Shown one piece after another: positions 1,416 through 55,773 of a stretch of 64,000 nucleotides of DNA. Position numbers and translations under genes: made by a program. Origin of the DNA: an uncultured virus (IMG/VR IMGVR_UViG_3300034157_000062). Lineage: Duplodnaviria > Heunggongvirae > Uroviricota > Caudoviricetes. The stretch lies in IMG/VR virus record IMGVR_UViG_3300034157_000062, one strand, 5' to 3'. Below the pieces are notes generated by a model. The model was not told the origin of the DNA and did not search any database. It was given only the letters and a program-made list of their open reading frames with translations. Position 1 is the stretch's first letter. Every line of letters starts with the position of its first letter.

Positions 1416-1790
1416 ATGACTACTAAAATCGCTAAGATTACTAAAAAAATGCAAGCTGAAATGGAAGCGACCTATTATGCTTACTTGGTTAAAAGGACAG
1501 CAGATTATGTGCTTGCAAAGAATCCAACCTATCGTTTTGAAATTAAAAGAACGAATATTGCAAACAGAATGCGTTTAAGCATACTGGATAACTCAGCACT
1601 GCGTAAGGCATTGAAAGAATCGCCGTATTCTTTTAAAGTCACCAGAAATAAGTATCCAACACCGCATATTGAACGAGGCTTTCTTAAAATGATTTTAGAT
1701 GTTCATGAAATCATGAAAGATCAAGGAAGGTTTCTAGAACAAGATATTACTGATGATGACTTTCTTCTTGTTGAAATGATGAAGTTCTAA
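1416..1790 (+). CDS. hypothetical protein with C-terminal Met(-4) motif
   Basis: ATG 1416 after GAGAGGG; ends LLVEMMKF; terminator follows. Confidence 0.75.
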   Translation: MTTKIAKITKKMQAEMEATYYAYLVKRTADYVLAKNPTYRFEIKRTNIANRMRLSILDNSALRKALKESPYSFKVTRNKYPTPHIERGFLKMILDVHEIMKDQGRFLEQDITDDDFLLVEMMKF

Positions 1791-1869
1791 CACAAAAGCC
1801 TCGAAAGAGGTTTTTTGCTATCTGTTATTTTCATGTTAATATAATGATGACTAAGTTAGGAAATTAATC

Positions 1870-2880
1870 ATGAATAAAATAGGATTCGCTTGTAAGTATA
1901 TGCACGCTGACAGAACGTTATCAGCAAAAGACCTTGAAACCATTGAAAGACAATATAATACAAAAACAACTACATCAAAGTGGTTGATGGGTGTAGATAT
2001 CAATGACGCCTATGCCAAACTCTTCATGGTCGTAGAACACAACCTTGCTTCTCAGTTAAAACTGCTGGAGTATGTCAATACATTACCAGAACAGCTTCGT
2101 ATGGTGCGTTTAAGCAGCGATCTACTTCCCTTATACTCTCATCATGCATGGGGACACTTTTACAAGCGAAAAGACGTTATAGAGATTTTAGAGCGTGGTT
2201 TTTCAAAGATAGGTGAATACGCTAGACAGCATAATATAAGAATGTCCATGCATCCGGGGCAATTTTGTGTGCTGGCTTCTGAACGTGCAGATGTGGTGAC
2301 CAAAAGCATTGCTGAGTTTGAATATCATGTGGACATGATTCGTATGATGGGCTATGGTCAATCCTTTCAAGATTTTAAATGTAATATTCACATTGCAGGA
2401 ACTCACGGTGTCGAAGGTACTATCTCAGTATTACCATTACTCAGTAGCGAAGCTCGTAATTCCATCACGTTTGAAAATGAAGAAAAGAAGTATGGCTTAG
2501 ATGACTGCATTAAATTAGCTGCCTATGCTCCTGTGGTCCTTGATGTTCATCATTGCTGGATACATGAGGGTGAGTATATTGACATAAACGATGATCGTAT
2601 ACAGCGTGTTATAGAGAGTTGGAGAGGTGTTCGCCCAACCATGCACTATTCTCAGTCCAGAGAATTCATCCAAGACCATTTCAATACCACTGATAAACTT
2701 GAAGTCTCTCAACTTATGAAACACTATAACAAAAAGGACTTGTATGGTCATAGTGACTATATGTGGAATGATTGGAGTAATCGTTATGTTAAAGAGTTCA
2801 TGCCTTATTTTGACATCATGTTTGAAGTTAAATCAAAGAATTTAGCGACTATTCAGTATTATGAAAACTATTTAAAATAG
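1870..2880 (+). CDS. uvsE: UV damage repair endonuclease (UvsE/UvdE)
   Basis: IGFACK start, RLSSDLLP, SMHPGQF, LDVHH, HYSQS, HSD, DIMFEVKSKN motifs. Confidence 0.93.
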   Translation: MNKIGFACKYMHADRTLSAKDLETIERQYNTKTTTSKWLMGVDINDAYAKLFMVVEHNLASQLKLLEYVNTLPEQLRMVRLSSDLLPLYSHHAWGHFYKRKDVIEILERGFSKIGEYARQHNIRMSMHPGQFCVLASERADVVTKSIAEFEYHVDMIRMMGYGQSFQDFKCNIHIAGTHGVEGTISVLPLLSSEARNSITFENEEKKYGLDDCIKLAAYAPVVLDVHHCWIHEGEYIDINDDRIQRVIESWRGVRPTMHYSQSREFIQDHFNTTDKLEVSQLMKHYNKKDLYGHSDYMWNDWSNRYVKEFMPYFDIMFEVKSKNLATIQYYENYLK

Positions 2881-2909
2881 TTGACGCACTAGGCAATAAT
2901 TGATATAAT
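2881..2909 (+). promoter_or_regulatory. sigma70-type promoter
   Basis: TTGACG-17 nt-TATAAT upstream of ORF 2937; one of many similar promoters in the window. Confidence 0.7.
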
Positions 2910-2936
2910 CTTGGCATTAACCGTCGAGGTGTTCAA

Positions 2937-4354: not shown

Positions 4355-5044
4355 ATGACTGTTAACACTGAGTTGGATTATGTAGTTAAATATTTTAAAG
4401 AAGCATTTAATGATACTGTTTTTTATGGTTTGAATAAACATGGGGAACTTGTGATTAAGAGTGGTTCGAACGTCCATGACGATATCGACATTGCTAATAT
4501 AATGTTTGATTATGATGAAAAAACACAAACGCTACTCAGTCTTTTTAACCACACGTTGAGAATGATTAGTCCACGGATTAATTTAAGCAAGAATACGCCT
4601 GACTTTGTTGAATATTGGAAAACACATTATCTTAGAACCTATCACTATCCATCGCGTTTGTATGCGGCATTACAAAAAGTATTGGGTCCAACTCAAAAAG
4701 TTATTGATAATCATATTTATTCCATTTCAATACAATTAAAAACTTTTGATGAAAAGTTGACGATTATTCATGAGGTTATATTCTCTATGTGTAATGAAAA
4801 AGGTGGCACTGATAGTTTTATTATTACATTAGACGAAAACTTAGAACTAATTGATGTTGTTCTGTATGAAACTGGTAATTTATTTCTTAAACATTCAAAA
4901 GGTCTTGAAATTGAAGACAAGAAGAACTTGTTTATTGTTGTCTTAGGCACTTTAATTAATAAAGAGTTTTCTAAATATTTTGACAAAACGAATATAGACT
5001 ATTCGGAAAGATCAATAGAACTCCTGACTATGTTAGAGTTCTAA
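4355..5044 (+). CDS. hypothetical protein with C-terminal Met(-4) motif
   Basis: AAGGA RBS; ends ELLTMLEF. Confidence 0.75.
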   Translation: MTVNTELDYVVKYFKEAFNDTVFYGLNKHGELVIKSGSNVHDDIDIANIMFDYDEKTQTLLSLFNHTLRMISPRINLSKNTPDFVEYWKTHYLRTYHYPSRLYAALQKVLGPTQKVIDNHIYSISIQLKTFDEKLTIIHEVIFSMCNEKGGTDSFIITLDENLELIDVVLYETGNLFLKHSKGLEIEDKKNLFIVVLGTLINKEFSKYFDKTNIDYSERSIELLTMLEF

Positions 5045-5485: not shown

Positions 5486-5619
5486 ATTTTATAATTTTTG
5501 TTATTCAATTACACTTTATCACATATTTAACTATATGTAAAATACAACACCTTGTATAAAAATATTGCATTAAATATTGAATTTTGATATAATCTATTAA
5601 CAATTTAGGAGATTAACCT

Positions 5620-7605: not shown

Positions 7606-7801
7606 TGGTTAAATTGATAATCGTGTCAATAAAATGACAGATGGTGTAATAGTATTTGTTTATTTTAAAATGTATGTTTTACTACTTGTTATAGGACAAA
7701 AACTGCCTTGCCAAGCACACTGGCGAAATCTTTTGATAAGTCGTTTCAACACAATAAACAGTAAATTAATTAACTAAGTGCTTAAGTTAAAGGAGAATAA
7801 A

Positions 7802-14250: not shown

Positions 14251-14346
14251 AGAACCTCCTAAAATTAAGTATCGTCTATATTATCAGCTTTATCTTGAAA
14301 TTACAATAAAATAATGATAATGTATGGTGAGAAAAATGGAGAAACC

Positions 14347-15087
14347 ATGAATATTCAGTTGATTTTAGAAAAAACTAAATTTACGGATTTAGAAAAAATA
14401 AAAATAGGTTCATTTATTACACCCTTAATAAATAATATGAGCATTATGTCGATTGAATATTTAGACCAAAATGATTATGAAATGATAACCATTTGCTTAT
14501 ATGACATCATTTATTACTTTGGTAAATCAAATATTAATAAGGTACTCACATTAAGCTCTTATGAGAGATCCAAAGAAGTGTATACGGAATATCAATTTTT
14601 CAGTAGCTTTATTCCAACGATTGTTTATAAGTTTTATGAAGGTAAGTCATTAGGGATGGGTGATGGACAACGAGAGCGAAAAAGAAGCGTTCTGTACAAT
14701 ACAGCCTATGTAGACTCGATGATAAAAGTGGATATCGGTTATGCTGGTGGTTCTGATAAAGCTAAGCGTATTACTGTCTATGTGCAAAAAAATGCGTTGG
14801 TCAAAAGTGGCAGTGGTTTCACATTTGATTTGGTTAATTATTACTTTACGATAGACATGAAATCAAAAGAAGTAATGGAAACACACCCGCATGGTGCAAA
14901 GCGATACAACATGCTATTTTCTGATAGGCAATATAAGAACCATACCAAATATAAATATTCTACTGAATTAGCGGAAAATTTTCTGGGTTGTTTTAATTCA
15001 CTTAAAGATGTTCAGGATGTGTATTCAGAAGTAGGTCGTGAAGGTATTAAGAATTTTGTTTACTTAACAAAGATGATTTTAATTTAA
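14347..15087 (+). CDS. hypothetical protein with C-terminal Met(-4) motif
   Basis: GGAG RBS before ATG 14347; ends YLTKMILI. Confidence 0.7.
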   Translation: MNIQLILEKTKFTDLEKIKIGSFITPLINNMSIMSIEYLDQNDYEMITICLYDIIYYFGKSNINKVLTLSSYERSKEVYTEYQFFSSFIPTIVYKFYEGKSLGMGDGQRERKRSVLYNTAYVDSMIKVDIGYAGGSDKAKRITVYVQKNALVKSGSGFTFDLVNYYFTIDMKSKEVMETHPHGAKRYNMLFSDRQYKNHTKYKYSTELAENFLGCFNSLKDVQDVYSEVGREGIKNFVYLTKMILI

Positions 15088-18374: not shown

Positions 18375-19313
18375 ATGTCAACATGTATTTCAAATGGTTA
18401 CATACTTGAAACCTCTAACTCTAAAAAAGTTAACAAGGTTAATGAACGACTTCGTGTCATTTTTAATCAGATTTTAAAGAAAACGTTAGTTTCAAATATA
18501 GCGTCATTGGTTGCTCCTATTGCTAATTATAACTGCAATCCAAAATCAGATTGTCAACAACGGCATGAATCTTATTTAGCTGATCTTCAATCAAAAAATC
18601 ACGAATTAAACAATAAAGTATTCGAACTTCAAATTCAACAAAGATTTAAACAGAAAGAAGGTTCGCTATTTGATTTTGCAAAAGATGTTATTGGCTTTAT
18701 GTCAGACAATAATATTCGCAATATGTACAGTGTTAATTCAGAAAAGATCTATTTTAAGACAGTGGGACATGTCACCCTTTATTATTTTGCTATTTCAGGC
18801 CCAGTTGCAAAAGAATTTGAGCGTATTAATGAACGACTTAATATTTTGAAGAATTATGAATATTACGACAACACAGATAAACCAGATGATGTGACAACCA
18901 AAGCATGGAGTCACCGTAATCATACGTGGAATCGCGTTTTAAATGGTTTATCAAACGTCTCTGAGGCTATGTATAATATCCCACTCAAAGTCGATTTTTA
19001 TGATATTACTGAAATAGATATTATGACTGAACTTCCTGATGAACATCAACGTTTAAAAAGCATCTACAAACGTAGTCGTGTTAATGAACTTGGGGCACAA
19101 CTTAGGGCAGAACATGTTAAAAAACATGGCCCTGATCTTTCGTCTTCTGACTATTCACAAATTTATTTTGATGTATCTGAACAGGTTATGGAAGAAATTA
19201 AAAATGGCGTTTACACAACGTCTCAAAAGCATTTAGACATGATGATCAGTCAAGATGAATTTATAAACAGTATTTTTTATGAAGAAAACACTTATTTCAA
19301 AAAAGAAGAATAA
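18375..19313 (+). CDS. hypothetical protein, paralog of ORF 17371
   Basis: YEYYDNTDKPDDVTTKAWSHRNHTW. Confidence 0.75.
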   Translation: MSTCISNGYILETSNSKKVNKVNERLRVIFNQILKKTLVSNIASLVAPIANYNCNPKSDCQQRHESYLADLQSKNHELNNKVFELQIQQRFKQKEGSLFDFAKDVIGFMSDNNIRNMYSVNSEKIYFKTVGHVTLYYFAISGPVAKEFERINERLNILKNYEYYDNTDKPDDVTTKAWSHRNHTWNRVLNGLSNVSEAMYNIPLKVDFYDITEIDIMTELPDEHQRLKSIYKRSRVNELGAQLRAEHVKKHGPDLSSSDYSQIYFDVSEQVMEEIKNGVYTTSQKHLDMMISQDEFINSIFYEENTYFKKEE

Positions 19314-19314
19314 T

Positions 19315-19998
19315 ATGATTGTAAATGAAATATATGATGAAGATGAACCATCTGAAATGGAACATATTGATATATTTAGGGAAGCCCTACTTCCCTATAT
19401 GTCAGAAGACGCTATTGTGAATATTGAGTATTTAGGTTCTAGGTACGATGTGGATATCAGGGAAGGTCGTTTTGCTGGGGTTAGTTTCTTAGGGTATTAT
19501 CATGGTGACTATATCAGTATTGAATTAAAAAGTAAGCAAGCTTTTTATAAATTATATGAATTGTTTCCACAAGCCAATCCTATTGACTACAAAACATTGA
19601 ATGAAAATATCAATCGTTTTAAATTTTTGTATGCGTTTGCTTTTGGTCGAAACCTTAATGTTAAAAGTGTTCATACAATGGATGACTTAATGAGTTGCTA
19701 CATTTATGATGGACCGAATTATAACCATCTTGTTGCTGAACGAGATCAGCCCTATTCACACTTCTCAGTCGGTATGGGGATTGGAATAAGCACTCTTCCT
19801 ATTCTACTCCGTGATAATTTGTCATATAACTATTCCGTTGGTCAGTATTCTCATCAAGATAAAAACGCCATTAGACGAAAAGATTTTGAAGAATTTGAGG
19901 CTGAATTCATTAAACGCTTCATTACAGCTAAACTGGGGATTGATAAATCTGAATTAACGTTTGAACATTATAAGATTTTGAGGATGTTAAATATTTAA
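19315..19998 (+). CDS. hypothetical protein, paralog of ORF 22094; Met(-4) motif
   Basis: shared INxFxFxYAFxxG and YDGPNY/WDGENY; ends ILRMLNI. Confidence 0.75.
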   Translation: MIVNEIYDEDEPSEMEHIDIFREALLPYMSEDAIVNIEYLGSRYDVDIREGRFAGVSFLGYYHGDYISIELKSKQAFYKLYELFPQANPIDYKTLNENINRFKFLYAFAFGRNLNVKSVHTMDDLMSCYIYDGPNYNHLVAERDQPYSHFSVGMGIGISTLPILLRDNLSYNYSVGQYSHQDKNAIRRKDFEEFEAEFIKRFITAKLGIDKSELTFEHYKILRMLNI

Positions 19999-22093: not shown

Positions 22094-22801
22094 ATGAATG
22101 AAATAGATGAAGTAAAAATACAAGAAATGATTGATGAGACATTGAGAAAAGGTAAGGAAACTATGGAGATCATACGACCTATTTTTAATAATGTCATTGA
22201 TCTCTCTATTCCATCTGATTTTTATACTCGTGAACTTGAATACATTTTATCATACGATAATCCAGACCAACCTTTTTATGGTTCGTATTACATGGGGTGG
22301 TATGATGCCAAAAGTGAGTGCATAGACATTGATATAAAATCAGAAAAAGGTTTTGATTTATTTTTTGAGGTTTTCCCAACAGCTCCCAAAATAGATATTG
22401 CACACATTAATCAAGTCATTAATGAATTTAGATTTATGTATGCCTTTATATTGGGTAAAGATATATTTTATCAGGTGACGAGTATGGAAGATCTTAAAGA
22501 CAATTATCGCTGGGATGGTGAAAACTATCGTTTTACAGTGCGGTTATTAGATGAATCTATTTTTGATCAAGAACACTTTTCTATTAAAGTATTCTATGAT
22601 ATTTGCACGAAAACCTGTAAGATTAATCAATCCTATAAATATGAATTTATGCATCCTGATATTGCTGTTTCTTTTGAATCCTTTGATTCAATAGCTTTCA
22701 TTAAAGAAAGTTTTTTTCAACATGTTGCTAAAATGATGAATAAATCAGTTAATGAAATACGATTAATTGATTATAAAGTATTACCGATGTTAAATTGTTA
22801 A
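22094..22801 (+). CDS. hypothetical protein, paralog of ORF 19315; Met(-4) motif
   Basis: ends DYKVLPMLNC. Confidence 0.75.
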   Translation: MNEIDEVKIQEMIDETLRKGKETMEIIRPIFNNVIDLSIPSDFYTRELEYILSYDNPDQPFYGSYYMGWYDAKSECIDIDIKSEKGFDLFFEVFPTAPKIDIAHINQVINEFRFMYAFILGKDIFYQVTSMEDLKDNYRWDGENYRFTVRLLDESIFDQEHFSIKVFYDICTKTCKINQSYKYEFMHPDIAVSFESFDSIAFIKESFFQHVAKMMNKSVNEIRLIDYKVLPMLNC

Positions 22802-34228: not shown

Positions 34229-35218
34229 ATGTTACACAAAAGATATGATAACAAAGAAGAAAATATTCAAATAATAAAGGATAGCTTAACCTATGTTTTG
34301 AAGACATTGGGAGCACCTGATCACTTCATTTCGACTTCTCTGGATAACATTGATTCTGAATGCCTTAGTTATTCTTTTCCTAATGATTTCATCAATGCTG
34401 ATTTTGGCGATGATACTAATAAGTCAATTACATCTTCAACTATTATTACACATTTTAATACGTTAGCAGCCTTATACAAAGTCCATGTAGAGTTTAGAGA
34501 TGAGTTAAAAAAATCAACAATGGTAATGATTTATAATGCAGATATGGAATTTGTTGACTATCAGTTTAAGGATGATATTCCAAGCAGACATAGATATTAT
34601 CAAACTCTTTGTGATATGGAGTTTGAGTTAAAACGATTATTGGTTACTCAATTAAAAAGAATATCTAGTGCATTTAAGTGCAATGAATCACTACTTGAAA
34701 AATTCATTGATCAAATATACCTGACAAAAAATCATGATTATACATCCGTTGGTAAAAATAATAAAAATAGAAAATTTGATTTGTCTTATAGTGACAAAAA
34801 GTTTACAATAAAGACTAATATATTTTCGGTAGATGTTGATTACTTTAACAGTTCAAAATTTGACATGCATTGTGATATAGCATTTGATACGTCTACAAAA
34901 ATACAAAAGGTAATCTTTATCTTTCAATCAAAATCAGTAGATAGATTTAAGCTTACACAAGACATTATTTCATTTGATAAACAATTAAACCTTATAAAGT
35001 ATGAAAAAAAATATTTTGTAGATCATAATATAAGAATAGATTTAATTCCAACGTATGGCTTAATAAATGAAGATTTTTTATTTCTCCTTAACTTAAAGTT
35101 CTGTCCACATAATGAAATTAATGATGTATTACCTGAATTAACTATTCCATCAGCTTATGATTTCAATTCAATTGATTTTAAGAATAGGTTGAATACTGCA
35201 GAGATGTTGTTGTTTTAA
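34229..35218 (+). CDS. hypothetical protein, paralog of ORF 33132; Met(-4) motif
   Basis: ends PSAYDFNSIDFKNRLNTAEMLLF. Confidence 0.75.
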   Translation: MLHKRYDNKEENIQIIKDSLTYVLKTLGAPDHFISTSLDNIDSECLSYSFPNDFINADFGDDTNKSITSSTIITHFNTLAALYKVHVEFRDELKKSTMVMIYNADMEFVDYQFKDDIPSRHRYYQTLCDMEFELKRLLVTQLKRISSAFKCNESLLEKFIDQIYLTKNHDYTSVGKNNKNRKFDLSYSDKKFTIKTNIFSVDVDYFNSSKFDMHCDIAFDTSTKIQKVIFIFQSKSVDRFKLTQDIISFDKQLNLIKYEKKYFVDHNIRIDLIPTYGLINEDFLFLLNLKFCPHNEINDVLPELTIPSAYDFNSIDFKNRLNTAEMLLF

Positions 35219-38046: not shown

Positions 38047-38994
38047 TTATATTTTAAGCATTTTAATAACTGTAAGGTAATCCTTTAATGCTTCTGCTGA
38101 TTTAAATTCATCTGTTGTTCCATTGTTTTCTAATCCCACACAACTTTCAATGAAATATGCAAATATTGGGTTATAAAAAACTTCATAGTTCTTTATTAAA
38201 TAATCAAGTACTATATTCTTTTCATTTATCGAAAAATTATAATTTTTTAAGATTGTGGGTTGAATTTCTTCATTATCTTTATGTTGAAGTTTTAATTTTA
38301 AATCAGATTCGGTACAAAGATATATATTATCAGAAACACTAATTAAATGAATGAATACCTTGTCGATAGTTGTTTTATAGAGTTGAATCTGATGTTTAAT
38401 GCTATCGTTTAATTTAATAACATCATCACCGACAAAGCTATCTAAATTAGCTATATCTATTATATAGTAAGGATTATCTTGTAAATATAAAACGTTACTC
38501 TTCATTGTGACATTATTAATAAAATTATTTACTTTTAATAACCTAATCGTAGCATCTTGCCCCATCGTGGCACTACGAAGGCAATAAGAACCACACAATG
38601 GAATATTAATATTATCAATAAAGTCGTCATGAAAAAATTCTGTTTTTAAAATATTTTTAATATGACGATTAAAATAAGTGTTTAAGAATTTTATTCCATC
38701 TATCTCAATTGTTTTATAATTATTCTCAGGTACACAAATAGGATTTAAAGCAATTAAATTACCTGCTGATCTTACTCTAATGTTGATTCCATTTATACCT
38801 TTTGATAGATGGATATCACTTATGATGGGATGTTTTAATAGTATATAGCTTAAAACATCTTTAAGCTCTTCTTTTGTTTTTGTATTGTAGTAAGTCTTAT
38901 TTTTACAAATAAATTCAATAGCCGACATATCTGTTCCTAATAATTTTAGGAAACTATTTGCAACGGTCATCTCATGTTTTTCAATTGTTAACAT
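38047..38994 (-). CDS. paralog 4 of 4, PilT/GspE N-domain-like segment; Met(-4) motif
   Basis: SDIHLSKG...IRVR..G; ends YLTVIKMLKI. Confidence 0.7.
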   Translation of the reverse strand: MLTIEKHEMTVANSFLKLLGTDMSAIEFICKNKTYYNTKTKEELKDVLSYILLKHPIISDIHLSKGINGINIRVRSAGNLIALNPICVPENNYKTIEIDGIKFLNTYFNRHIKNILKTEFFHDDFIDNINIPLCGSYCLRSATMGQDATIRLLKVNNFINNVTMKSNVLYLQDNPYYIIDIANLDSFVGDDVIKLNDSIKHQIQLYKTTIDKVFIHLISVSDNIYLCTESDLKLKLQHKDNEEIQPTILKNYNFSINEKNIVLDYLIKNYEVFYNPIFAYFIESCVGLENNGTTDEFKSAEALKDYLTVIKMLKI

Positions 38995-39022: not shown

Positions 39023-39982
39023 TTATACTTTTATCATGTCAAGTGTTGTTAAATAATTTTTAAAGGCTTCTGGTGTCTTGAATTCTCCAATTAACGGGTC
39101 AAATTTTACTTGTGTCACATCTTCGATAAAAGCAGTAAAAATAGGGTCATAGAAATCGCTGTAATGTTTCAAGACATACTTTAAAATAGTTTTATTCATT
39201 TCTACCCTACCAATGCTGTAAGTATTAGGAATGATTACATTTATAGTATTGTTTCCCATGTATTCTAAAACAATTTTAATTTTGTTATATTTATAGATAT
39301 TTAATTTACCTTTAAATTTATTAAACATTTTATCAAGTTTACTTTCATAAAGATCGATTTTAGTTTGTATTTCAGGTGTGAATGTAACACCACTATTATG
39401 AATAAAACCTCCATTTATTAACTCAGCTTCGATAGTATAAATCGGATTTTCTTTTATTTGCAGTATATTATAATTAATATCAGTAGAGGTGTTGTTTTTA
39501 TTTTTAAGTATTCTTGTAATCCCATCATGTCCACAAGATGAGCTTCTTAGTCTATACATGCCAAACATTGGTATATCTAGATCACTATAAAAATCATAAG
39601 TTTGTCCAGTTTCCATTGAACTTGGACCTCTAATTTGTTCCAAAATATCTTTGAAGACATCTATAGCAAATGACTGGTTGTTAATCTTAGCTATTGCATA
39701 GTTATCATTAGCTGCAATGGTTATGGGGATGTCATGCATGTTACCATTTTTTCGAACTCTTAACCTTATTATTTTTTGATAAGAATCAAAGTTGAAATGA
39801 AGATCTGTTATATCCTTATAATTAACTAAAATATAAGTTAAAAAATGGTTAATAGTTTCTTTTGTTTTTGCATTGTAAAAAAAGTTATCTTTTTCAATAT
39901 AATCAATCGAACTTAAATCAGTATTAAGTAGACTTAAAAACTCATTTATTTTATCAAGATCATTGTTTTCAATTTTTAGCAT
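39023..39982 (-). CDS. paralog 3 of 4; Met(-4) motif
   Basis: TDLHF...RLRVRKNG; ends YLTTLDMIKV. Confidence 0.7.
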   Translation of the reverse strand: MLKIENNDLDKINEFLSLLNTDLSSIDYIEKDNFFYNAKTKETINHFLTYILVNYKDITDLHFNFDSYQKIIRLRVRKNGNMHDIPITIAANDNYAIAKINNQSFAIDVFKDILEQIRGPSSMETGQTYDFYSDLDIPMFGMYRLRSSSCGHDGITRILKNKNNTSTDINYNILQIKENPIYTIEAELINGGFIHNSGVTFTPEIQTKIDLYESKLDKMFNKFKGKLNIYKYNKIKIVLEYMGNNTINVIIPNTYSIGRVEMNKTILKYVLKHYSDFYDPIFTAFIEDVTQVKFDPLIGEFKTPEAFKNYLTTLDMIKV

Positions 39983-39999: not shown

Positions 40000-40962
40000 T
40001 TATACTTTAATCATTTCTAGTGTTGTTAAGTAATTTTTGAAACATTCAGGATCTTTAAAATCTTCCAGTAATGAATCAGATTTTATTTCAGTGATGGTTT
40101 CTATCAGAGTCTTAAATATAGGCTTATAAAAAGATTTGTAGTTTTCTTTTAAATAAGCTAATAAAATTGAGCGGCTTCCATTATCTGATTTCAAGTAATG
40201 TTCGTAGTTACCATAAACATCAACAGTTATCGATCCAAATTTATCATATTCTAAACCAATAGATAATTTATTAGTCATATAATAACTGGTTACTTCACAA
40301 TGAGCATGTAACTTGTTTGTTTCTTCAATATAAAAATAGATATCATCTTCAATTTTTTTAGGTAGTTTGAAATGTGAGTTTTCAATAATCAATCCATCTT
40401 TAATTTTTAAATCAATTTTATAGAGAAGATTTCCATCTAAATTTAACCAATTAATGTTTGTAGCATAGAAAGGAAGAATTGTTGGTATTTTTATTATTCT
40501 AAATGCCGTAGAACTCTCCATCATTGCACTTATTATTACATATAAACCAAAATCTGGAATATACACTATGTCAGACGTATTGTTATCATCTATTTTTTTT
40601 GATATTAATCTTTGAATGTGGTCTTTAAAAAAAACTGTTGAAAATGAGAGTTTATTAATTCTTGCTGTTTCGTAATTATCAAATTTGTTAATTTCTATAT
40701 CAGTGAGGTGCCATGCTCCCATTTCTCTATACATAACATTAATCTTATTGGTGTTGTTGGTTTTAATAAGCAGGTCGCTTGTGTTGTTATAATTTTTCAG
40801 CATATAACTTAAAAAATCATGATCGGCTGTTAATTCAGCAGTAGTATATAATTCGTTATTTTTAATCACGTAATCAATAGATGAAAAATCAGTAGATATG
40901 ATATTTAAAAATTTATTAATTCTGTCTAGCTGCGTATCATTAATTTTTATCATTTTAAGCAC
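40000..40962 (-). CDS. paralog 2 of 4; Met(-4) motif
   Basis: ends YLTTLEMIKV. Confidence 0.7.
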   Translation of the reverse strand: MLKMIKINDTQLDRINKFLNIISTDFSSIDYVIKNNELYTTAELTADHDFLSYMLKNYNNTSDLLIKTNNTNKINVMYREMGAWHLTDIEINKFDNYETARINKLSFSTVFFKDHIQRLISKKIDDNNTSDIVYIPDFGLYVIISAMMESSTAFRIIKIPTILPFYATNINWLNLDGNLLYKIDLKIKDGLIIENSHFKLPKKIEDDIYFYIEETNKLHAHCEVTSYYMTNKLSIGLEYDKFGSITVDVYGNYEHYLKSDNGSRSILLAYLKENYKSFYKPIFKTLIETITEIKSDSLLEDFKDPECFKNYLTTLEMIKV

Positions 40963-40982: not shown

Positions 40983-41981
40983 TTATACTTTCATCATTTC
41001 TAGTGTTGTTAGGTAATTTTTTAAACAGTCGGGGTCTTTAAAATTTCCATGCAATGTATCTATTTTAGTTTGTGTGACAGTTTCTATCAGGTTTTTAAAA
41101 ATAGGGTTATAGAATATGTGACAATTTTTTTTGATGTACTCTAAAAAATATTTTTTACCATTACATATCATGAAAACTGTTTCGTAATCACCGTAGACAT
41201 TCAAATTTATGTTTTCAAATTTGTCGTATTCTAAACCAATAGATAATTGATCATTTTTATAATACGCATTTTTTATGTAATATTTTGTAGTGATAGATCC
41301 CTCTTTGCACAGGATTGAGAACAATTTATTAATTTCATTAATGTAACAATAGATATCATCTTCGACTTGTTTAGGTAACTTGAAATTATGGTTTTCAACA
41401 ATTAATCCATCGACTAACTTAACATCAGTTTTGTATATAGGATTTTCGTCTATATTTAACCAATGAACAGTGCTTTGATTCTGAATTTTATCAGGCGTTA
41501 ATTTCATTAATTTAAATACAGATTCAGTCCCCATAACACCACTTCTTATTCTGTATAAACCACACTCTGGAATAAAGGCTATTACCAATTCATCATCATT
41601 CTGATGGTGTTTAGTCGTTATTTTTGATACATAATCTCTAAAACAATCAGTTGAACATGTGATTTCTGCGTTTGTGGCTGTCGTATAATTATCGTCATGA
41701 CTAATTAAAAGGTCCAGTAAATTATTTTTTATTCCATGTTCACGGGCAAATAGATTAATTTTCCCTTCATTTTTTTTATGCATCAATATTATTTCATTAG
41801 TGTTAGGATAATTTTTCAAAACATAACTCATTAAGTCATAGTCAGGAGGAAGTCTTTTGTTTGGATAAAATACGTTATTTTTGACCACATAATCAATAGA
41901 TGACAAATTAGTCAATAATCTACCTAAAAACGTATTAATTCTGGTCATTTCGTTGTCTTCAATCTTGATCATTGAGTTCAC
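40983..41981 (-). CDS. paralog 1 of 4; Met(-4) motif
   Basis: ends YLTTLEMMKV. Confidence 0.7.
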   Translation of the reverse strand: MNSMIKIEDNEMTRINTFLGRLLTNLSSIDYVVKNNVFYPNKRLPPDYDLMSYVLKNYPNTNEIILMHKKNEGKINLFAREHGIKNNLLDLLISHDDNYTTATNAEITCSTDCFRDYVSKITTKHHQNDDELVIAFIPECGLYRIRSGVMGTESVFKLMKLTPDKIQNQSTVHWLNIDENPIYKTDVKLVDGLIVENHNFKLPKQVEDDIYCYINEINKLFSILCKEGSITTKYYIKNAYYKNDQLSIGLEYDKFENINLNVYGDYETVFMICNGKKYFLEYIKKNCHIFYNPIFKNLIETVTQTKIDTLHGNFKDPDCLKNYLTTLEMMKV

Positions 41982-44599: not shown

Positions 44600-44759
44600 T
44601 TGTTCCTCATTAGTTTCTATTAGTTAACTATATTATTATAATACAAAAGTGATAATTATACAATCTTTTATTTTTTGAATAATAATAAAGGATTGTTATT
44701 ATACTTGATAATCTTGACATTTTTTGATATTATTGAACATATACAAGGTATTATTATCT

Positions 44760-45398
44760 ATGAGCACTGACGCCAAACCGTATAAAATAAATAAAGCATT
44801 CAATTTCGATGAACGATTATTAGAAGAATTTTCAAAAGAATCCTCGATTCCATTGGTTAGACCTGTTGGTGTATTTCATCTTGCTATTAAATTAAAAGAA
44901 GATCAAGAACCTTGTGTTGATGGTATTGGTTATCCAGCTCTTATTTGTCGTTATATTTTGAAAGACTACATCAAAGAAGACTATGACGCCTACTTACAAA
45001 GTATTTTCGCTACAATGAAACGTTATGGTCATTATGTGAATATTCAGTTTCAACGCCAGACGAAAAAAACTATTAGCATTACCTTAGCTGATAATTATCG
45101 CTCAATTAAGGACATCACCGCTATTAGTTTTGATTATGATATACATTTACGCGACAAAAAAAACATTTACCCAGACGCTCAAGTGACCATTGTGTTTGAA
45201 GGTGAATCAATCTATGAGTTCAGTATTGATGAAAATAATGAACCATATATTAAAATGGTTGTTAACTATAATGATTTAGATGGTTTCTTTATTAAATTTA
45301 TTGAAGCGTATAAAAATAAGTTTGCACGAAAACTAGGTGTTCAACGATCAACCGAGACAGCCCAACTTAAAATATTAGTTGACATGGTTCTTTTTTAA
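44760..45398 (+). CDS. hypothetical protein, paralog of ORF 45463; Met(-4) motif
   Basis: shared YIKEDYD and NYNDLDGFF; ends LVDMVLF. Confidence 0.75.
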   Translation: MSTDAKPYKINKAFNFDERLLEEFSKESSIPLVRPVGVFHLAIKLKEDQEPCVDGIGYPALICRYILKDYIKEDYDAYLQSIFATMKRYGHYVNIQFQRQTKKTISITLADNYRSIKDITAISFDYDIHLRDKKNIYPDAQVTIVFEGESIYEFSIDENNEPYIKMVVNYNDLDGFFIKFIEAYKNKFARKLGVQRSTETAQLKILVDMVLF

Positions 45399-45462: not shown

Positions 45463-46134
45463 ATGACAAATGAAGTTAAAATACATGAAATAGACAATCT
45501 TTTAAACATTGATAAAAATATTTTAACAGCAATTTCTGAAGAGTCTTCTCATTTTATTCTGGATAATGTTGTTGAATTTTCTATGTTTAATACTAAACCT
45601 ATGGATAACTCACATTTAGCGATTACATTAAAAAACGATCAAGCTCCTTTTGTTTCTTATTTAGGAGATCCTTCTATTATTTCGCGTCACATATTAAAAC
45701 CTTATATAAAAGAAGATTATGATATACTTTTGCAAACCATTTTCAAGAAAATTAAAAATTATGGAAAATTTATTGGTATAGATTTTCAGAGATTTACAAA
45801 GATGAGGATGAATATCACACTGGCTGATGATTATCAATCTATTCAAGACATCGAATCTTTTGATTTAGTTTATATTATGCTAATAAAGACATATCAATAT
45901 TATCAAGTGAAAGCGGATATCAGTATTGTATTTAATGGAGAGTCTGTTTATGATTTTAAGTATACTCAAGGTGATTATGCAACACTTAAAATGGTGATTA
46001 ACTATAATGATTTAGATGGCTTCTTCATGAAATTTGCTGAATCCTATCGAGATGAAATTTCAAAAAAATTAGGAGTAGAACACTCAACCGATATGTGGAA
46101 AATGCTAGCACTGGCTGAAATGTTTGTTATCTAA
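45463..46134 (+). CDS. hypothetical protein, paralog of ORF 44760; Met(-4) motif
   Basis: ends LALAEMFVI. Confidence 0.75.
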   Translation: MTNEVKIHEIDNLLNIDKNILTAISEESSHFILDNVVEFSMFNTKPMDNSHLAITLKNDQAPFVSYLGDPSIISRHILKPYIKEDYDILLQTIFKKIKNYGKFIGIDFQRFTKMRMNITLADDYQSIQDIESFDLVYIMLIKTYQYYQVKADISIVFNGESVYDFKYTQGDYATLKMVINYNDLDGFFMKFAESYRDEISKKLGVEHSTDMWKMLALAEMFVI

Positions 46135-52555: not shown

Positions 52556-53305
52556 TTGAAAAAGCGAATACGATACGCCAAACCCATTACAGTTGATGAA
52601 TTAGAGCATATCATTTTCAAAGTTGGTAAAACTGCAGTATTTGATGAAATAGGACTACAAGGAAAATTATTCAAACAAGCAGGCTTCATTGCAATCCCCG
52701 CCGTCACCGATTGTGAATATTACTTTAAAGATATGGGTGAACATTTATTACTTATAGCTGTTGAAGGTATTGTCAACACAAAACAAGTTTATATGTCAAG
52801 AAAATCATTGATATTAAACAATCCAAGAAATTTAAACATCTTAAAGAATTTAAACGATGATAATTATATTCATACACTATCAACCGTAGGTGATTCAGAA
52901 GAAACGGCTATCGGTAACGAGTTCTATATCAAGAGTAATACGAAACCTTGCAAAGAGGTATTCGACTCGCCTAAATACTTAAATGTTGAAGAATCTAATT
53001 TCACGTATGAAGTTTTTAAATATCAAGATTTCAAATACCGTATAGAACAAATATGGGTGACGGGTGTTATTGATGTACAATACATTTCGAATGAAGACAA
53101 TAATAACCTTATTGTGACTGATCTATCATTCTCAGAATATGGAACGTTGATATCTTACGCAGTGGAGAATAAGAAAGGTTCTATTAAATCGACCAACCTC
53201 AATTCACTGATTGATACCAGTCATGTCAATATAGATAACTATCATCTATTCTTTCAGAAGATAAATAAAGAAACACTCACAGTTATTGAAATGTTAATTG
53301 AATAA
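52556..53305 (+). CDS. paralog 1 of 4 (DNYHLF family); Met(-4) motif
   Basis: IDNYHLFFQK...VIEMLIE. Confidence 0.7.
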   Translation: MKKRIRYAKPITVDELEHIIFKVGKTAVFDEIGLQGKLFKQAGFIAIPAVTDCEYYFKDMGEHLLLIAVEGIVNTKQVYMSRKSLILNNPRNLNILKNLNDDNYIHTLSTVGDSEETAIGNEFYIKSNTKPCKEVFDSPKYLNVEESNFTYEVFKYQDFKYRIEQIWVTGVIDVQYISNEDNNNLIVTDLSFSEYGTLISYAVENKKGSIKSTNLNSLIDTSHVNIDNYHLFFQKINKETLTVIEMLIE

Positions 53306-53385: not shown

Positions 53386-54153
53386 ATGCTTTATATAAAA
53401 AATGTAGAACCCACTCTTGTTTTCGTAACGGCTGCTACCTCTCATGAACAATTGATTGGGTATATTAAAACAGTAGGAACTACCGTTTTTTTCAATAATT
53501 TCACCCAAGGAACTCTACGAGACTACCTTCATATTAATGGCTTCAAAAATGTGAGTTCATCAGTAAAAGTTCTTTATTATGCCGTGGTTGACAAAACTAT
53601 TCTGGTTATCCATCTTGATGGTCAGGTACTTAAAGAAAAGTATTGGGTTAAGTTGTCAGATGAAAACCTTGAGTATGTTGACACTTATGGCAAAGAAAAT
53701 GACGACTTCTTTATGTCATTTAGTACTGAACATATGTCGAATAACGATGTATATGAAATAACCACAGATGTTCCATTTTGTGAATATTTTGTTGTCATCA
53801 TGAATTCTGATAGCACTTCTAAATTCCCGCTGAGACGTGTTGATCTTTACTTTAAACATAAAACTAACCAATATTTGAGTGTTTCTATTTTCAACAAAAA
53901 AAATGGATTTGTTCAAATTCAATATGAGAACCCTGAACCCAATGGTGATTACTATTTTTCTGATTTTATGGAATTTGGGGCTGGCAGATTACTAGTCGCT
54001 AGAATCATAAATAGACACCGCCGAATAAATATAGATATCACCCCTGATTCTGAAATTGTTGATGTCAATGATATTAGTATAGATAATTTTCACTTATTTT
54101 GGGAAAAGTTAACTCCTGAACAACTTGTATTACTAGAAATGACCACTATATAA
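53386..54153 (+). CDS. paralog 2 of 4; Met(-4) motif
   Basis: DNFHLFWEKLTPEQLVLLEMTTI. Confidence 0.75.
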   Translation: MLYIKNVEPTLVFVTAATSHEQLIGYIKTVGTTVFFNNFTQGTLRDYLHINGFKNVSSSVKVLYYAVVDKTILVIHLDGQVLKEKYWVKLSDENLEYVDTYGKENDDFFMSFSTEHMSNNDVYEITTDVPFCEYFVVIMNSDSTSKFPLRRVDLYFKHKTNQYLSVSIFNKKNGFVQIQYENPEPNGDYYFSDFMEFGAGRLLVARIINRHRRINIDITPDSEIVDVNDISIDNFHLFWEKLTPEQLVLLEMTTI

Positions 54154-54167
54154 TTAGGAAAAATATT

Positions 54168-54950
54168 ATGATTGACTTAAAAAACATAGAGATGAATCTT
54201 ATTACATTAGACTCTGAAAATTTTAATGTTAATGAATTTTACAAATACATTCACAAGGTTGAAGTTTGTATGGCTTTCATAAATTTTGATAAATTCATGT
54301 TAGATGACTTATTTATTAATGCTGGTTTTACAAAAATTACGGGAGCAGAAAGTCCTCATTATTTTAAAATTATGGATTCCTTTATATTTGTTATTTATAT
54401 TGAGGCATCGGCGGCAAATTTTGTGATGCTTGAAAAATATTTTCTGATCAATTCAGAAAGAAATCTTTCAACTGTTAAGGCATTTGTACATAAAACTTTC
54501 AATGATGGTAATTTTGCAGATTTTCATAGTGATAGTGACGTATTTGATTATAAACTTTACCCAGAATCATTAGACATGCCATTTTATGTAAATTATCTTG
54601 TTCGATCTGCCTATGCTGTGCCGAAGCTTCTTCGTGTAGACTTAGGATTAAAGTATGGAAATGATAAATTTATGATCGCTTCTATTTTTGATAGAGATGA
54701 TGAATGTATACAGATAGCCTATGATACATATACAAAAGATTGTAATTATATGTATGCAGAATTCATTCAATTCGTAAATGAGAACGTTACAGATTTGAAA
54801 ATCTATACCCCACATAATCAGAAAACAATCTCTATAACACATTGTCTAGATGATTGTGATATAGATCTTATTACATTAGATAACTATCATCTTTTTTGGG
54901 AAAAATTAACATCTGAACAAATTTTATTGTTCGAAATGTCAGTTGTATAG
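54168..54950 (+). CDS. paralog 3 of 4; Met(-4) motif
   Basis: DNYHLFWEKLTSEQILLFEMSVV. Confidence 0.75.
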   Translation: MIDLKNIEMNLITLDSENFNVNEFYKYIHKVEVCMAFINFDKFMLDDLFINAGFTKITGAESPHYFKIMDSFIFVIYIEASAANFVMLEKYFLINSERNLSTVKAFVHKTFNDGNFADFHSDSDVFDYKLYPESLDMPFYVNYLVRSAYAVPKLLRVDLGLKYGNDKFMIASIFDRDDECIQIAYDTYTKDCNYMYAEFIQFVNENVTDLKIYTPHNQKTISITHCLDDCDIDLITLDNYHLFWEKLTSEQILLFEMSVV

Positions 54951-55017
54951 CTGATTGCTAGTATATATGGCAGTGAAAATTTGATAAGGTAGAGAACTTT
55001 AACGAGGGTTACACGGA

Positions 55018-55773
55018 ATGATGAATTTAAATAAAGTTAGTATGAAGCTAGATATTATAGATTCTGTCGCATGGAACATGGACTCATTTAACACGTCCAT
55101 ACAAAAACCAGCCACAAGTGTTTTCTTTAATAATTTTACATCACATGATTTAGATAGGTTTTTAAAAGAATCTGGCTTTGAGCAAATCGAGAATTTAAAG
55201 CTTTTTTATTTTAAGAAGGTTAATGACTTTATATTGATTATCAAATTAGAATCGAGACATATTAAAGAAAAGTATCTTATTCATTATACCGAAGATAATT
55301 TTGCTTACATACGAGACACAAAGAACTATGAGCAATCTTTTGAATCATTCCATAATGATGAGAAAAGAAATCACACACTTTATCCAGAAGGCGTAGAAAC
55401 ACCTTTTTATGAAAATTTCATGGTAAGGGAGAATTATGGAGATCCCACTTTAATCCGAACAGATGTTGGTTTTAAATATTTAAAAAATCGGTTTGTGATT
55501 GCGTCTCTTTATGAAAAGCATAAGAAACAAATTCAGATTTGTTATGATGATTACAGTCATAATCCAGATTGTATTCTTGCGGATGCTATTGGCTTTATTG
55601 GACAAGAGTTGACTGATGTAAAAATACTGAGTACAAAAAGTGGTAAACGGATATCGTTATTAGATCATAAAGATGTATTTGATGTAAGCGATGTCACCAT
55701 TGAAAACTTTCATCTTTTCTGGGAGCGTTATACAACAGAAGAACAAACCTTACTGGCAATGTTGCTGATATGA
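55018..55773 (+). CDS. paralog 4 of 4; Met(-4) motif
   Basis: ENFHLFWERYTTEEQTLLAMLLI. Confidence 0.75.
   Translation: MMNLNKVSMKLDIIDSVAWNMDSFNTSIQKPATSVFFNNFTSHDLDRFLKESGFEQIENLKLFYFKKVNDFILIIKLESRHIKEKYLIHYTEDNFAYIRDTKNYEQSFESFHNDEKRNHTLYPEGVETPFYENFMVRENYGDPTLIRTDVGFKYLKNRFVIASLYEKHKKQIQICYDDYSHNPDCILADAIGFIGQELTDVKILSTKSGKRISLLDHKDVFDVSDVTIENFHLFWERYTTEEQTLLAMLLI

Follow-up and report, generated by a model that had tools for sequence, protein, structure and literature searches.

Of the genes in a 64,000-nucleotide stretch of DNA (the window; IMG/VR virus record IMGVR_UViG_3300034157_000062), roughly a quarter to a third encode proteins that end in the same C-terminal tag, and the proteins that carry it are otherwise unrelated and fast-evolving. 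The tag is defined by hydrophobic residues at positions -7 and -6, Met at -4, and a hydrophobic residue at -1 (the full pattern). Its enrichment is real and far above chance. Most likely, it serves as an address label, not described before, for export or for docking.

Non-overlapping, ATG-started ORFs of at least 80 aa were counted in the window, and the background frequency of Met was set to 0.026. All 20 endings listed in the first-pass annotation were found at their genes (Table 1), and a position-specific enrichment test of the C-termini gave a Met peak at -4 alone. Met occupied this position in 20 of 63 window ORFs, compared to a background of 2.6% (binomial P = 9e-17), and occurred at most five times at each other position from -1 to -12. 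In G001, a syntenic contig from IMG/VR, Met was found at -4 in 45 of 188 ORFs (P = 2e-31). Over the combined 245 kb of the window and G001, the residue was thus present in 65 of 251 genes (26%). The full pattern stood at the C-terminus of 58 of these 251 proteins (23%), where its frequency inside proteins (116 in 68,231 positions) predicts 0.43, and it was spread over 30 of 161 BLAST clusters.

Table 1. Genes of the window whose products end in the C-terminal tag, and one near match.
Coordinates	Strand	Length (aa)	C-terminal residues	Family and relatives	Remarks
1..1230	+		LYEIMHY		Near match (ORF 1), cut by window start; Ile at -4
1416..1790	+	124	LVEMMKF		Length from ATG, start in ORF list is TTG 1383; last 14 aa identical in G001 orthologue
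4355..5044	+	229	LLTMLEF	Singleton	No Pfam
14314..15087	+	257	LTKMILI		
19279..19998	+	239	ILRMLNI	Paralogue of 22094..22801	
22094..22801	+	235	VLPMLNC	Paralogue of 19279..19998	
23513..24115	+	200	LYGMMEI	Tandem paralogue pair	
24117..24707	+	196	LYSMMEI	Paired with 23513..24115	
24708..25547	+	279	VLEMEKI		Ile at -4 in L173 orthologue
33132..34199	+	355	IAEMLLV	Tandem pair	
34229..35218	+	329	TAEMLLF	Paired with 33132..34199	
38047..38994	-	315	VIKMLKI	A1/A2 (four tandem paralogues)	
39023..39982	-	319	TLDMIKV	A1/A2	
40000..40962	-	320	TLEMIKV	A1/A2	
40983..41981	-	332	TLEMMKV	A1/A2	Structure modelled
44724..45398	+	224	LVDMVLF	Tandem pair	Ile at -4 in G001 orthologue
45463..46134	+	223	LAEMFVI	Paired with 44724..45398	
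52556..53305	+	249	VIEMLIE	A3	Final Glu conserved in the subfamily's database homologues
53386..54153	+	255	LLEMTTI	A3	
54168..54950	+	260	LFEMSVV	A3	Structure modelled
55018..55773	+	251	LLAMLLI	A3	Ile at -4 in G001 orthologue

If the pattern were an artefact of composition, of gene calling, or of a translated DNA signal such as a terminator or recombination site, it could owe something to the AT-rich genome, in which ATG is the only codon for Met. However, spurious overlapping ORFs had Met at -4 in only 3 of 94 cases, and the GC-matched huge phage LR745206 (100 kb, 29-30% GC) in 4 of 114 ORFs. The DNA encoding the tails carries its information in codon positions 1 and 2, with third positions near random, and no conservation was found in the DNA 3' of the carrier stop codons. 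The tag was also kept by orthologues in three related assemblies, and Met at -4 was kept in all 46 database homologues retrieved. The codon-position pattern and the two controls refute an artefact, to which we assign next to no probability. The tag is selected as a peptide, not as DNA, and is locked to the C-terminus.

Carriers diverge faster than the proteins encoded around them, but conserve their tails better than their bodies. Orthologue pairs of carriers were 61% identical over the body and 75% identical over the last 14 aa, and the tail was the more conserved part in 12 of 16 pairs (Wilcoxon p = 0.008); for non-carriers, the corresponding values were 75% and 71%. Met at -4, which the first-pass annotation had reported correctly for the 20 tails, is not absolute. 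Among seven distant homologues, four had Met and three had Ile, Leu or Ala, while Ile took its place in two orthologues from G001, two from L173, and window ORF 1. In two G001 proteins, the motif sits 1 or 3 residues short of the end; the G001 orthologue of ORF 1 reads LYEMMNF and continues for three more residues. To conclude from a fixed distance to the terminus that the free C-end is recognised is plausible, but, given these extended variants, not strictly compelling.

The bodies to which the tag is attached share no detectable ancestry. BLAST sorted the 20 window carriers into 10 groups, as the annotation had estimated, and none of 528 hhalign profile-profile pairs among carriers reached a probability of 50% or more; 16 of the 30 best alignments extended to the C-terminus. 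A single homologous family is further contradicted by the two carrier families that were modelled (A2 and A3), whose predicted folds differ. Carriers are arranged in tandem paralogue arrays, and no Pfam model reached its cut-off in the 20 window carriers and 42 G001 ORFs with Met at -4. One G001 carrier of 492 aa has a central domain common to jumbo-phage proteins, with matches that stop before residue 284, far ahead of the tail. As had been claimed, no window enzyme recognised by Pfam has the tail, nor did a crude hydropathy test reveal segments resembling a TM helix or a signal peptide in any of the 20 window carriers. The same crude test, applied to the carriers of the window and G001, found no TM-like segment in 59 of 63; four carriers are polytopic membrane proteins with 3-4 membrane helices ahead of the tail, and in two of these the positive-inside rule predicts that the tail-bearing end lies in the cytoplasm. 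Most carriers are soluble by this test, and signal-peptide-like N-termini were limited to the first helices of the TM carriers and one doubtful case.

The tail is the last helix of a C-terminal module of roughly 30 residues. The seven residues described as the motif in the first-pass annotation stand, but the conserved part is longer, at about 30-35 aa. An acidic stretch is followed by a Thr/Ser/Asn helix cap and then by the helix, which has hydrophobic residues at -9, -7, -6, -3 and -1 and Met at -4. Of the 20 window tails, 17 have a hydrophobic residue at -3 and 18 have one at -1; the cluster representatives are hydrophobic at -4, -3 and -1 and mostly polar at -2, and 12 of the 29 have an acidic residue (Glu or Asp) at -5, where 5 have Lys. 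Asp and Glu are most frequent at -15, -12 and -11 and, in addition, at -5, with Asp as frequent as Glu, and the net charge at -20 to -8 is -1.16 in carriers versus +0.11 in non-carriers. In several tails, an acidic run precedes an aromatic-x-x-aliphatic pattern. The helix is poor in Pro/Gly (8/63 versus 75/188), and its helical moment is 0.66 compared to 0.96 in other termini, meaning that it is hydrophobic on most faces and not amphipathic. Searches of 34-residue tails from 30 representatives against Pfam returned no family. Some tails look superficially like the acidic loop and helix of an EF-hand or dockerin, with no match for tails at E <= 10 or for whole proteins at E <= 0.1. A CaaX prenylation box was rejected as well, since -4 is Met in 20 of 20 window carriers, Ile, Leu or Ala in variants, and never Cys.

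In the structure model of 40983..41981 (from the ATG at 41972, 329 aa), a PAS-like domain and helices are predicted, with the tail helix at 314-328 after a low-confidence linker. The model of 54168..54950 (A3; pTM 0.82) predicts an alpha/beta domain with an extended beta-sheet and C-terminal helices at 240-246 and 249-259, whose pLDDT of 75-83 suggests that they pack on the body. Such packing would suit an inherited mini-domain, that is, a homologous helical hairpin of 30-35 residues that spread by duplication and fusion, serves the folding or self-association of each protein that has it, and is not read as an address. The similarity beyond the last seven residues fits a mini-domain as well, as do the best hhalign pairs, which match 44-65 C-terminal residues end to end. 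However, the bodies differ in predicted fold and are less conserved than the tails, the A2 tail follows a low-confidence linker in the model, and a structural helix need not end exactly 3 residues past a near-invariant Met in 30 families. We consider a mini-domain of this kind unlikely, though a serious contender.

The carriers come from an uncultured, low-GC genome of bacterial type, with bacterial-type expression signals. Membrane transporters and OmpA-type proteins are present and point to a cell. G001 is classed as a provirus in IMG/VR, with a CheckV completeness of 58%, and a tRNA array, RNA-repair genes and several genes common to phages of 300-640 kb lie nearby. Members of the carrier families occur on contigs of 1.85-1.92 Mb. 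No phage structural hallmarks were found in the 245 kb of the window and G001, nor any gene for a capsid, portal, terminase, tail, encapsulin or microcompartment shell.

These surroundings bear on whether the tail is a docking or packaging peptide, with its helix plugging a groove of one abundant intracellular hub (a scaffold, proteinaceous compartment, phage-like particle or capsid) and so gathering unrelated proteins. With hydrophobic residues on most of its faces and little Pro/Gly, the helix would suit burial in a partner groove. In the family A2 model, a low-confidence linker lies between body and tail, and the provirus class of G001 and the phage-like genes nearby are in keeping with a particle. 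Encapsulin and microcompartment cargo peptides, and phage scaffold-derived tails, dock unrelated cargo to a shell in this manner, through a terminal helix or short peptide that a flexible linker joins to the cargo. However, scans of the proteins in the 245 kb found neither a shell nor a capsid gene, some carriers are membrane proteins, the transporters and OmpA-type proteins indicate a cell, and the related huge phage LR745206 is without the tail. As encapsulated cargo, the carriers would outnumber the largest set that we know of by about ten to one. The virion-packaging version, suggested by the first-pass annotation, is weakened because of the bacterial expression signals, the 1.85-1.92 Mb contigs, the missing hallmarks and the polytopic carriers. 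Docking to a hub is not probable in our judgement, although it deserves weight.

A C-terminal degron would instead hand the carriers to an AAA+ protease (ClpAP, ClpXP, FtsH or Lon) and keep potentially harmful proteins short-lived. Known C-terminal degrons share non-polar last residues and the requirement for a free end, and FtsH would be a fitting protease for membrane carriers whose tails are predicted to be cytoplasmic. G001 has a gene for a ClpA-like unfoldase, in which no Clp_N model finds a match to the first 180 residues, even at E up to 1; the link to ClpA is one of gene presence only. Degrons are normally unstructured: ssrA-like tails have a small non-polar end, are read by the pore loops of ClpX/ClpA and confer a short half-life, whereas the tail described here is predicted to form a capped helix poor in Pro/Gly. 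Moreover, the carriers all belong to orphan paralogue families, none of them a regulator or an enzyme, and we know of no case in which a single degron marks the products of between a quarter and a third of the local genes. A degron is very unlikely.

We propose that the tag is a lineage-specific C-terminal signal for Sec-independent export, type I- or type IV-like, a reading by analogy that we hold at somewhat less than an even chance. A large, rapidly diversifying set of proteins would be made in the cytoplasm, each ending in the tail module, and one cytoplasm-facing receptor of an export machine would recognise the tail. A type IV coupling-protein complex would qualify as this receptor, as would a type I ABC exporter or some equivalent not yet known, and the carriers would be effector-like cargo. 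That an export machine reads the tag, and which machine, we infer from the position lock, the selection on the peptide, the better conservation of tails than bodies and the unrelated bodies; from the effector-like character of the carriers (no Pfam family, tandem paralogues, few TM-like segments); and from the predicted cytoplasmic tails of two TM carriers together with the likeness to known C-terminal signals.

To our knowledge, neither an invariant Met nor such stereotypy has been described for type I signals. In type I protease and lipase substrates (AprA/PrtG-type, with Asp plus three hydrophobic residues; TliA, EGVLIS), the motif lies at the extreme C-terminus and its COOH end must be exposed (PMC2642768). 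The likeness would consist in an uncleaved signal at the very C-terminus of proteins without a signal peptide and, in part, in acidic residues followed by hydrophobic ones (PMC2642768); in the tag, the often acidic, sometimes Lys, residue at -5 precedes Met-hydrophobic-x-hydrophobic, with x being the mostly polar -2. In the HlyA signal, as in the tag, a helix is found among the last 50 residues (PMC8870123); that of HlyA is amphipathic. Unlike type I substrates, the carriers have no RTX or GGxGxD repeats (Pfam, 20 window and 42 G001 ORFs), and their number is far larger than usual.

Type IV effector signals (Dot/Icm and VirB/D4; E-block and helical adaptor-binding motifs) have no consensus and are depleted in Met, with Glu reported as enriched at positions 9-19 from the end and depleted at 1-4 (PMC3915618). 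They resemble the tag in occupying the last 20-35 residues, acidic upstream and hydrophobic near the end (PMC10025392, PMC3915618), and their bearers resemble the carriers in being hundreds of fast-evolving orphans in paralogue families, some of them transmembrane (PMC11602083, PMC7251119), as with Legionella type IVB effectors (PMC11602083). The module likewise occupies about the last 30 residues of proteins that, by the crude hydropathy test, mostly lack a Sec signal peptide. The acidic stretch of the tag recalls the Glu block in part, with Asp as frequent as Glu, and the tag differs from type IV signals generally in its near-invariant capped helix with Met at -4. No machinery gene was seen in the 245 kb, and candidate effectors with recognisable eukaryote-like domains are untagged.

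XVIPCD and BID domains measure about 100-120 residues and have family models, whereas the module here is about 30 residues long. Neither full-length carriers nor the 34-residue tails of 30 representatives matched such a domain in Pfam. XVIPCD, from the bacteria-killing systems of Xanthomonadales, and BID, from Bartonella, are C-terminal modules common to unrelated cargo and read by a coupling protein (PMC11253643 and PMC10025392).

Several observations speak against export. Pfam, NCBIfam and PHROGs revealed no secretion-system component in the 245 kb, the only hint being an OmpA-type protein that scored 33 bits against IcmN/DotK, with a cut-off of 250. In the same 245 kb, no ABC, MFP or TolC genes were seen and no receptor or machine for the tag was found. 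The most effector-like proteins, those with eukaryote-like or toxin-like domains, are without the tail (Ser/Thr kinase, NIF phosphatase, DUF4116, HipA_C/LepB_N, ART-PolyVal, and a 2309-aa Mbeg1-like protein). No promoter motif specific to carriers was found, known signals are far less stereotyped, and a cargo of a quarter to a third of local genes is unusually large. Finally, a helix with so little amphipathic character might just as well be a structural element buried in the protein.

The replicon's eukaryote-like domains suggest that the organism lives with a eukaryote, and the tail might act only after delivery into that host, as a short linear motif: a class II PDZ-type ligand (hydrophobic-x-hydrophobic-COOH), an Atg8-type motif or a membrane anchor. 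The hydrophobic residues at -3 and -1 and the acidic run with aromatic-x-x-aliphatic would be compatible with these. However, the likeness is to short, degenerate motifs, and the best sequence match to a solved structure, a helix of the N-WASP GTPase-binding domain, is at chance level (E 0.3). A host-directed motif is highly improbable.

It is also conceivable, but rather unlikely, that in an uncultured lineage with a genome of ~1.9 Mb, one not represented among the 185,579 species-representative genomes, much of the proteome bears this one stereotyped helix, and that a sorting system of an undescribed kind reads it. Such a system could be an export machine of a new type, or could load cargo in bulk into a compartment or particle. 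The replicon may itself be an unusual entity in which cellular and huge-phage-like genes are mixed.

Most C-terminal signals for export or sorting are so degenerate that they escape recognition, and cargo lists therefore have to be built by experiment or machine learning. Here, one lineage presents a crisp, position-locked tag that is legible from sequence alone. With the tag, all cargo of an unknown sorting system could be listed for an uncultured organism, and a minimal peptide of about 14-30 residues would be at hand for reporters and as bait for the receptor. Should a type I or IV machine prove to be that receptor, no known signal of its class would be as stereotyped as the tag, which could help explain how substrates are read; if not, it would point to an undescribed sorting route.

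Translation of every open reading frame (ORF) in the window recovered all 20 C-terminal endings listed in the first-pass annotation, each at its gene. Genes were counted as non-overlapping ORFs of at least 80 aa with an ATG start. In 20 of the 63 window genes so defined, methionine occupied position -4, and the proteins with this tail are hereafter called carriers; nowhere else among the last 12 residues did it exceed five occurrences in the 63 genes. Given a Met background of 2.6% of residues, the binomial probability of the window Met(-4) count is 9e-17, and the enrichment at a fixed distance from the terminus is thus real. In G001, a syntenic IMG/VR contig of 181,270 bases, Met was found at -4 in 45 out of 188 genes (P 2e-31). 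A fuller pattern, with a hydrophobic or small residue at -7 and -6, Met at -4, and a hydrophobic residue at -1, stood at the end of 58 of the 251 proteins of the window and G001 combined, whereas its internal frequency (116 occurrences in 68,231 positions) predicts 0.43. An all-against-all BLAST search placed the 251 proteins in 161 clusters; 33 clusters had a Met(-4) member, and 30 had a member with the fuller pattern. Two sets of ORFs served as controls: Met was at -4 in 3/94 spurious overlapping ORFs, and in 4/114 ORFs from 100 kb of the equally AT-rich huge phage LR745206.

The anatomy of the tail was read from one representative per cluster. Asp and Glu are commonest at -15, -12, and -11, and Thr, Ser, or Asn is frequent at -13. 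Next come positions -10 (Tyr, His, or Phe), -9 (Leu or Phe), -7 (Leu, Val, or Ile), -6 (Leu, Ile, or Ala), and -5 (Glu, Lys, or Asp). Met follows at -4, -3 is hydrophobic, -2 accepts any residue, and -1 is Ile in 20/29. When the last 34 residues were aligned, similarity extended farther upstream. Over its final 12 residues, the tail is hydrophobic (mean Kyte-Doolittle +0.46, versus -0.63 in other C-termini) and non-amphipathic (moment 0.66 vs 0.96), Pro and Gly are scarce (8/63 vs 75/188), and acidity prevails between -20 and -8 (net charge -1.16, as compared to +0.11 in other C-termini). A profile of the tail had no consistent match in Pfam; its best match among PDB sequences, a helix of the N-WASP GTPase-binding domain, was at chance level (E 0.3), and the ESM Atlas returned only generic helical hairpins, which were treated as noise.

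Codon positions 1 and 2 carry the information in the 30 cluster representatives (hydrophobic codons, for example, have T as their second base), while third positions are near random (0.01–0.15 bit), except in the Met, last-residue, and stop codons. No conservation was detected in the 40 bases past the stop codon of these representatives. Therefore, selection acts on the peptide, and the tail is not a DNA signal. Stop codon usage is the same in carriers as in other genes. An artefact as the source of the pattern can practically be dismissed.

The 20 window proteins had been sorted into about ten groups without other visible similarity, and BLAST likewise gave ten groups. A single homologous family would have explained the shared ending. 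Alignment of the 33 carrier-cluster profiles with hhalign revealed no shared body: none of the 528 pairs reached 50% probability and two reached 20%, with shallow profiles of 1–8 sequences, because of which a deep common ancestry is still conceivable. Sixteen of the 30 best alignments ended within three residues of the C-terminus, so the tail module is what the profiles share; that it is an inherited structural mini-domain we consider unlikely. AlphaFold2 models were built for two families. In that of A2 (pLDDT 81.6, pTM 0.70), residues 42–160 form a PAS-like alpha/beta domain, for which the GspE secretion ATPase (N-terminal domain) is the best structural match, a middling one (Z 7.7, rmsd 3.3, 88 aligned); long helices, a low-confidence linker (301–313), and the tail helix (314–328) follow. 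That of A3 (pLDDT 83.3, pTM 0.82) combines an alpha/beta domain with an extended beta-sheet, matches the TCP10 domain best, again in the middling range (Z 5.9; TCP10/OspA-like single-layer sheets), and ends in helices at 240–246 and 249–259. Neither model matched a PDB entry in Foldseek at E 0.001 or better, and VIA-align gave middling, generic matches only. Candidate labels of 'Immunity protein 35' and DUF4304 for the bodies scored 0.84–0.85 in the ESM Atlas, below threshold, and were taken as noise. In a 492-aa carrier of G001, the central domain is 27–56% identical to proteins of phages of 59–385 kb, mostly jumbo phages, and these matches extend no further than residue 283, well before the tail. 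The profile comparisons, the differing models, and the phage domain that stops short of the tail indicate that the tag sits on bodies that are apparently unrelated.

When carriers of the window and G001 were matched as reciprocal best hits, the 16 pairs were 61% identical in the body and 75% in the last 14 residues; the tail is the more conserved part in 12 of these (Wilcoxon p 0.008). The 38 pairs of non-carriers give 75% and 71%, respectively. Thus, the carriers evolve fast while their tails are held. Relatives are few: among 5.8 billion clustered proteins, only 17 were found for A1 and 22 for A3, and the A2 profile had 16 matches when HMMER was run in full against 1.84 billion representatives. 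Met(-4) was kept in 46/46 proteins fetched from the A1 and A3 searches, some of which are sequences of the window and G001 themselves. In seven distant relatives (E 1e-48 to 1e-4), position -4 holds Met in four and Ile, Leu, and Ala in one each. Ile replaces Met in two orthologues in G001, in two in L173 (a third related assembly), and in window ORF 1, and in two G001 proteins the motif is offset by one or three residues from the end.

In line with the first-pass annotation, the tail is absent from the recognisable window enzymes (UvdE, GAPDH, asparagine synthase, thioredoxin reductase, Fpg, a short ProRS, and nucleoside deoxyribosyltransferase); it is also missing from the CorC-like and AI-2E-family transporters and from a kinase-phosphatase-RNA-ligase fusion. 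No Pfam cut-off was reached by the 20 window carriers or by 42 scanned G001 Met(-4) ORFs. Comparison of 28 carriers with PADLOC and PHROGs gave a single phage-domain match, with nothing above 14 bits in PADLOC, and one carrier searched by tblastn against 50,697 phage records had no match. By a crude test, 59 of 63 carriers have no transmembrane-like segment. In the other four, all in G001, 3–4 membrane helices at the N-terminus precede a soluble part of ~100 residues that ends in the tail; in two of them, the positive-inside rule places this end in the cytoplasm. Carriers occur in tandem paralogue arrays of 2–6 genes. K-mer enrichment found no carrier-specific upstream motif at k=7 or 8, only weak 6-mers, and carrier promoters resemble ordinary -35/-10 boxes. 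One such array lies in a locus that is hypervariable between the window and G001.

Coordinates of features in the window and in the syntenic contig G001
Feature	Contig	Coordinates	Strand	Remarks
Hypervariable locus	window	38047-42714		four tandem A1 paralogues and a 201-aa gene
Hypervariable locus	G001	64363-74108		one A1 paralogue, two 197-aa genes, 2309-aa protein with N-terminal Mbeg1-like (lipase-like) domain
ClpA-like double-AAA+ protein	G001	121545-123821	-	758 aa; also L089:1545-3821
tRNA array	window	46183-47540	-	ten tandem Leu-type genes (ARAGORN)
Gene with jumbo-phage relatives	G001	165353-166831	+	44-56% identity
Gene with jumbo-phage relatives	G001	140671-141213	-	44-56% identity; relative also in a 634 kb uncultured phage
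ProRS	window	36070-37200	+	376 aa; bacterial model in two pieces, middle (editing) part missing
IleRS	G001	113758-116283	-	841 aa; model matched in two pieces
AspRS	G001	5308-6576	-	non-discriminating archaeal type; homologue in huge phage LR745206, 35% identity
RNA-repair genes, dense set	window	61970-64000	+	
RNA-repair genes, dense set	G001	8791-10227, 161057-161509, 178869-179477		
~590-aa orphan family	window	7778-12814	+	without Met(-4) tail
~590-aa orphan family	G001	18135-19943, 37207-38970, 81688-83472		without Met(-4) tail
Second-ending protein	window	5102-5485	-	
Second-ending protein	window	25629-26276	+	
Second-ending protein	window	30711-32984	+	
Second-ending protein	window	50069-51256	+	

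G001 was found by scanning viral contigs with asparagine synthase, and was the sole match in scans with asparagine synthase, A3, and ProRS; scans with the fourth A1 paralogue and A6 had none. It is ~63–80% identical to the window in nucleotides outside the tRNA array. Carrier-family members also lie on contigs of 1,917,244, 1,859,102, and 1,851,360 bases, and at the start of the 1.86 Mb metagenome record, the encoded proteins and their order agree with the matching part of G001 (by the lengths and last 25 residues of 12 ORFs). Upstream of the genes, purines peak at -12 to -8 in a Shine-Dalgarno-like manner, and the most frequent upstream hexamer is TATAAT. GAPDH has relatives that are just 48–61% identical and spread across many phyla. 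Besides a ClpA-like protein, G001 encodes SufE, YqeY, CoaE, Sir2, a PilS-type pilin, an outer-membrane barrel, an MFS-acyltransferase fusion, and three OmpA-type proteins. We tentatively read the replicon as the chromosome of a bacterium from an uncultured lineage, and the interpretation of the tag is correspondingly guarded. Its phage flavour consists of the IMG/VR call of G001 as a provirus, the array of ten Leu-type tRNA genes, aminoacyl-tRNA synthetases of short length, RNA-repair genes, and a few genes common to phages of 300–640 kb.

The RNA-repair set comprises a P-loop kinase/metallophosphatase/T4-type RNA ligase fusion, RtcB, a second RNA ligase, and the HAD domain of 'Swiss Army Knife' RNA-repair proteins, and is accompanied by PTH2 and MazG-like pyrophosphatases. 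The two G001 genes with jumbo-phage relatives have them in phages of Xanthomonas, Stenotrophomonas, and Ralstonia. The ~590-aa orphan family, with four copies across the window and G001, weakly matches proteins of 634–642 kb uncultured phages (31–33% over ~90 residues). Anticodons of the window tRNA array are TAG, TAA, AAG, and CAA, two each, plus one CTA, which would read the amber codon, and one four-base call; Rfam confirms 8/10 of these tRNAs, and a similar array lies at ~77.6–79.9 kb of G001.

The 245 kb of the window and G001 yielded no gene for a capsid, portal, terminase, or tail, and PHROGs revealed no structural gene among 85 unannotated proteins. The NCLDV capsid family had no match in G001, an uninformative result since this family, run as a control, matched nowhere. 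Docking or packaging of the carriers onto an intracellular hub or particle is, in our view, a doubtful explanation of the tag. The ClpA-like protein, 39–47% identical to proteins of species-representative genomes, mostly Gamma- and Betaproteobacteria, bears on the reading of the tag as a degron. None of the Clp_N models matches its first 180 residues, even at E up to 1, and no ClpS-sized gene adjoins it. A degron is improbable. Carrier families A1 and A6 have no match in the species-representative genomes. G001 also encodes eukaryote- or toxin-like proteins (Ser/Thr kinase, NIF, DUF4116, HipA_C/LepB_N, ART-PolyVal, and the 2309-aa Mbeg1-like protein). A host-directed linear motif is more improbable still than a degron.

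A second ending, of the type Y-x-I-C-[RK]-[TV]-x-I, was seen on proteins with signal-peptide-like N-termini (for example, YYQICRTAI, RYNICKVAI, and YYYIIRTPL). It is conserved in G001 and L173, and exported proteins may thus bear a terminal motif of their own, separate from the first.

The Met(-4) tag closes proteins that lack signal peptides, is cytoplasmic where topology could be guessed, and is found neither on housekeeping enzymes nor on exported proteins; the orphan paralogue families that carry it evolve fast, while the tag itself is conserved. Such C-termini are known to be read by type I and type IV secretion. By analogy, the tag could be an export signal read by a cytoplasm-facing receptor, the favoured reading, but one held tentatively because the tag resembles the signals of both systems and matches neither. 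Type I protease and lipase substrates have an acidic residue followed by hydrophobic residues and require an exposed COOH-end, where one extra residue impairs secretion (PMC2642768), and HlyA requires a helix within its signal (PMC8870123). In type IV effectors, the signals lie in the last 20–35 residues, with Glu enriched at positions 9–19 and depleted in the last four (PMC3915618); some of these effectors bind adaptors via helical motifs, and some are membrane proteins (PMC10025392, PMC11602083, PMC7251119). RTX repeats, a type I feature, are missing from the carriers (20 window and 42 G001 ORFs), and Met is reported to be depleted in type IV C-termini (PMC3915618), whereas it occupies -4 here. 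Nor is the tag present on those proteins of G001 that, by their recognisable domains, most resemble effectors. No secretion-machinery gene was found in the 245 kb.

Keyword searches of open-access text returned no description of a Met(-4) C-terminal tag, which is weak evidence that it is unpublished. C-terminal targeting signals are a known kind; what is new here is the sequence of the tag, its stereotypy, and the share of genes that carry it.
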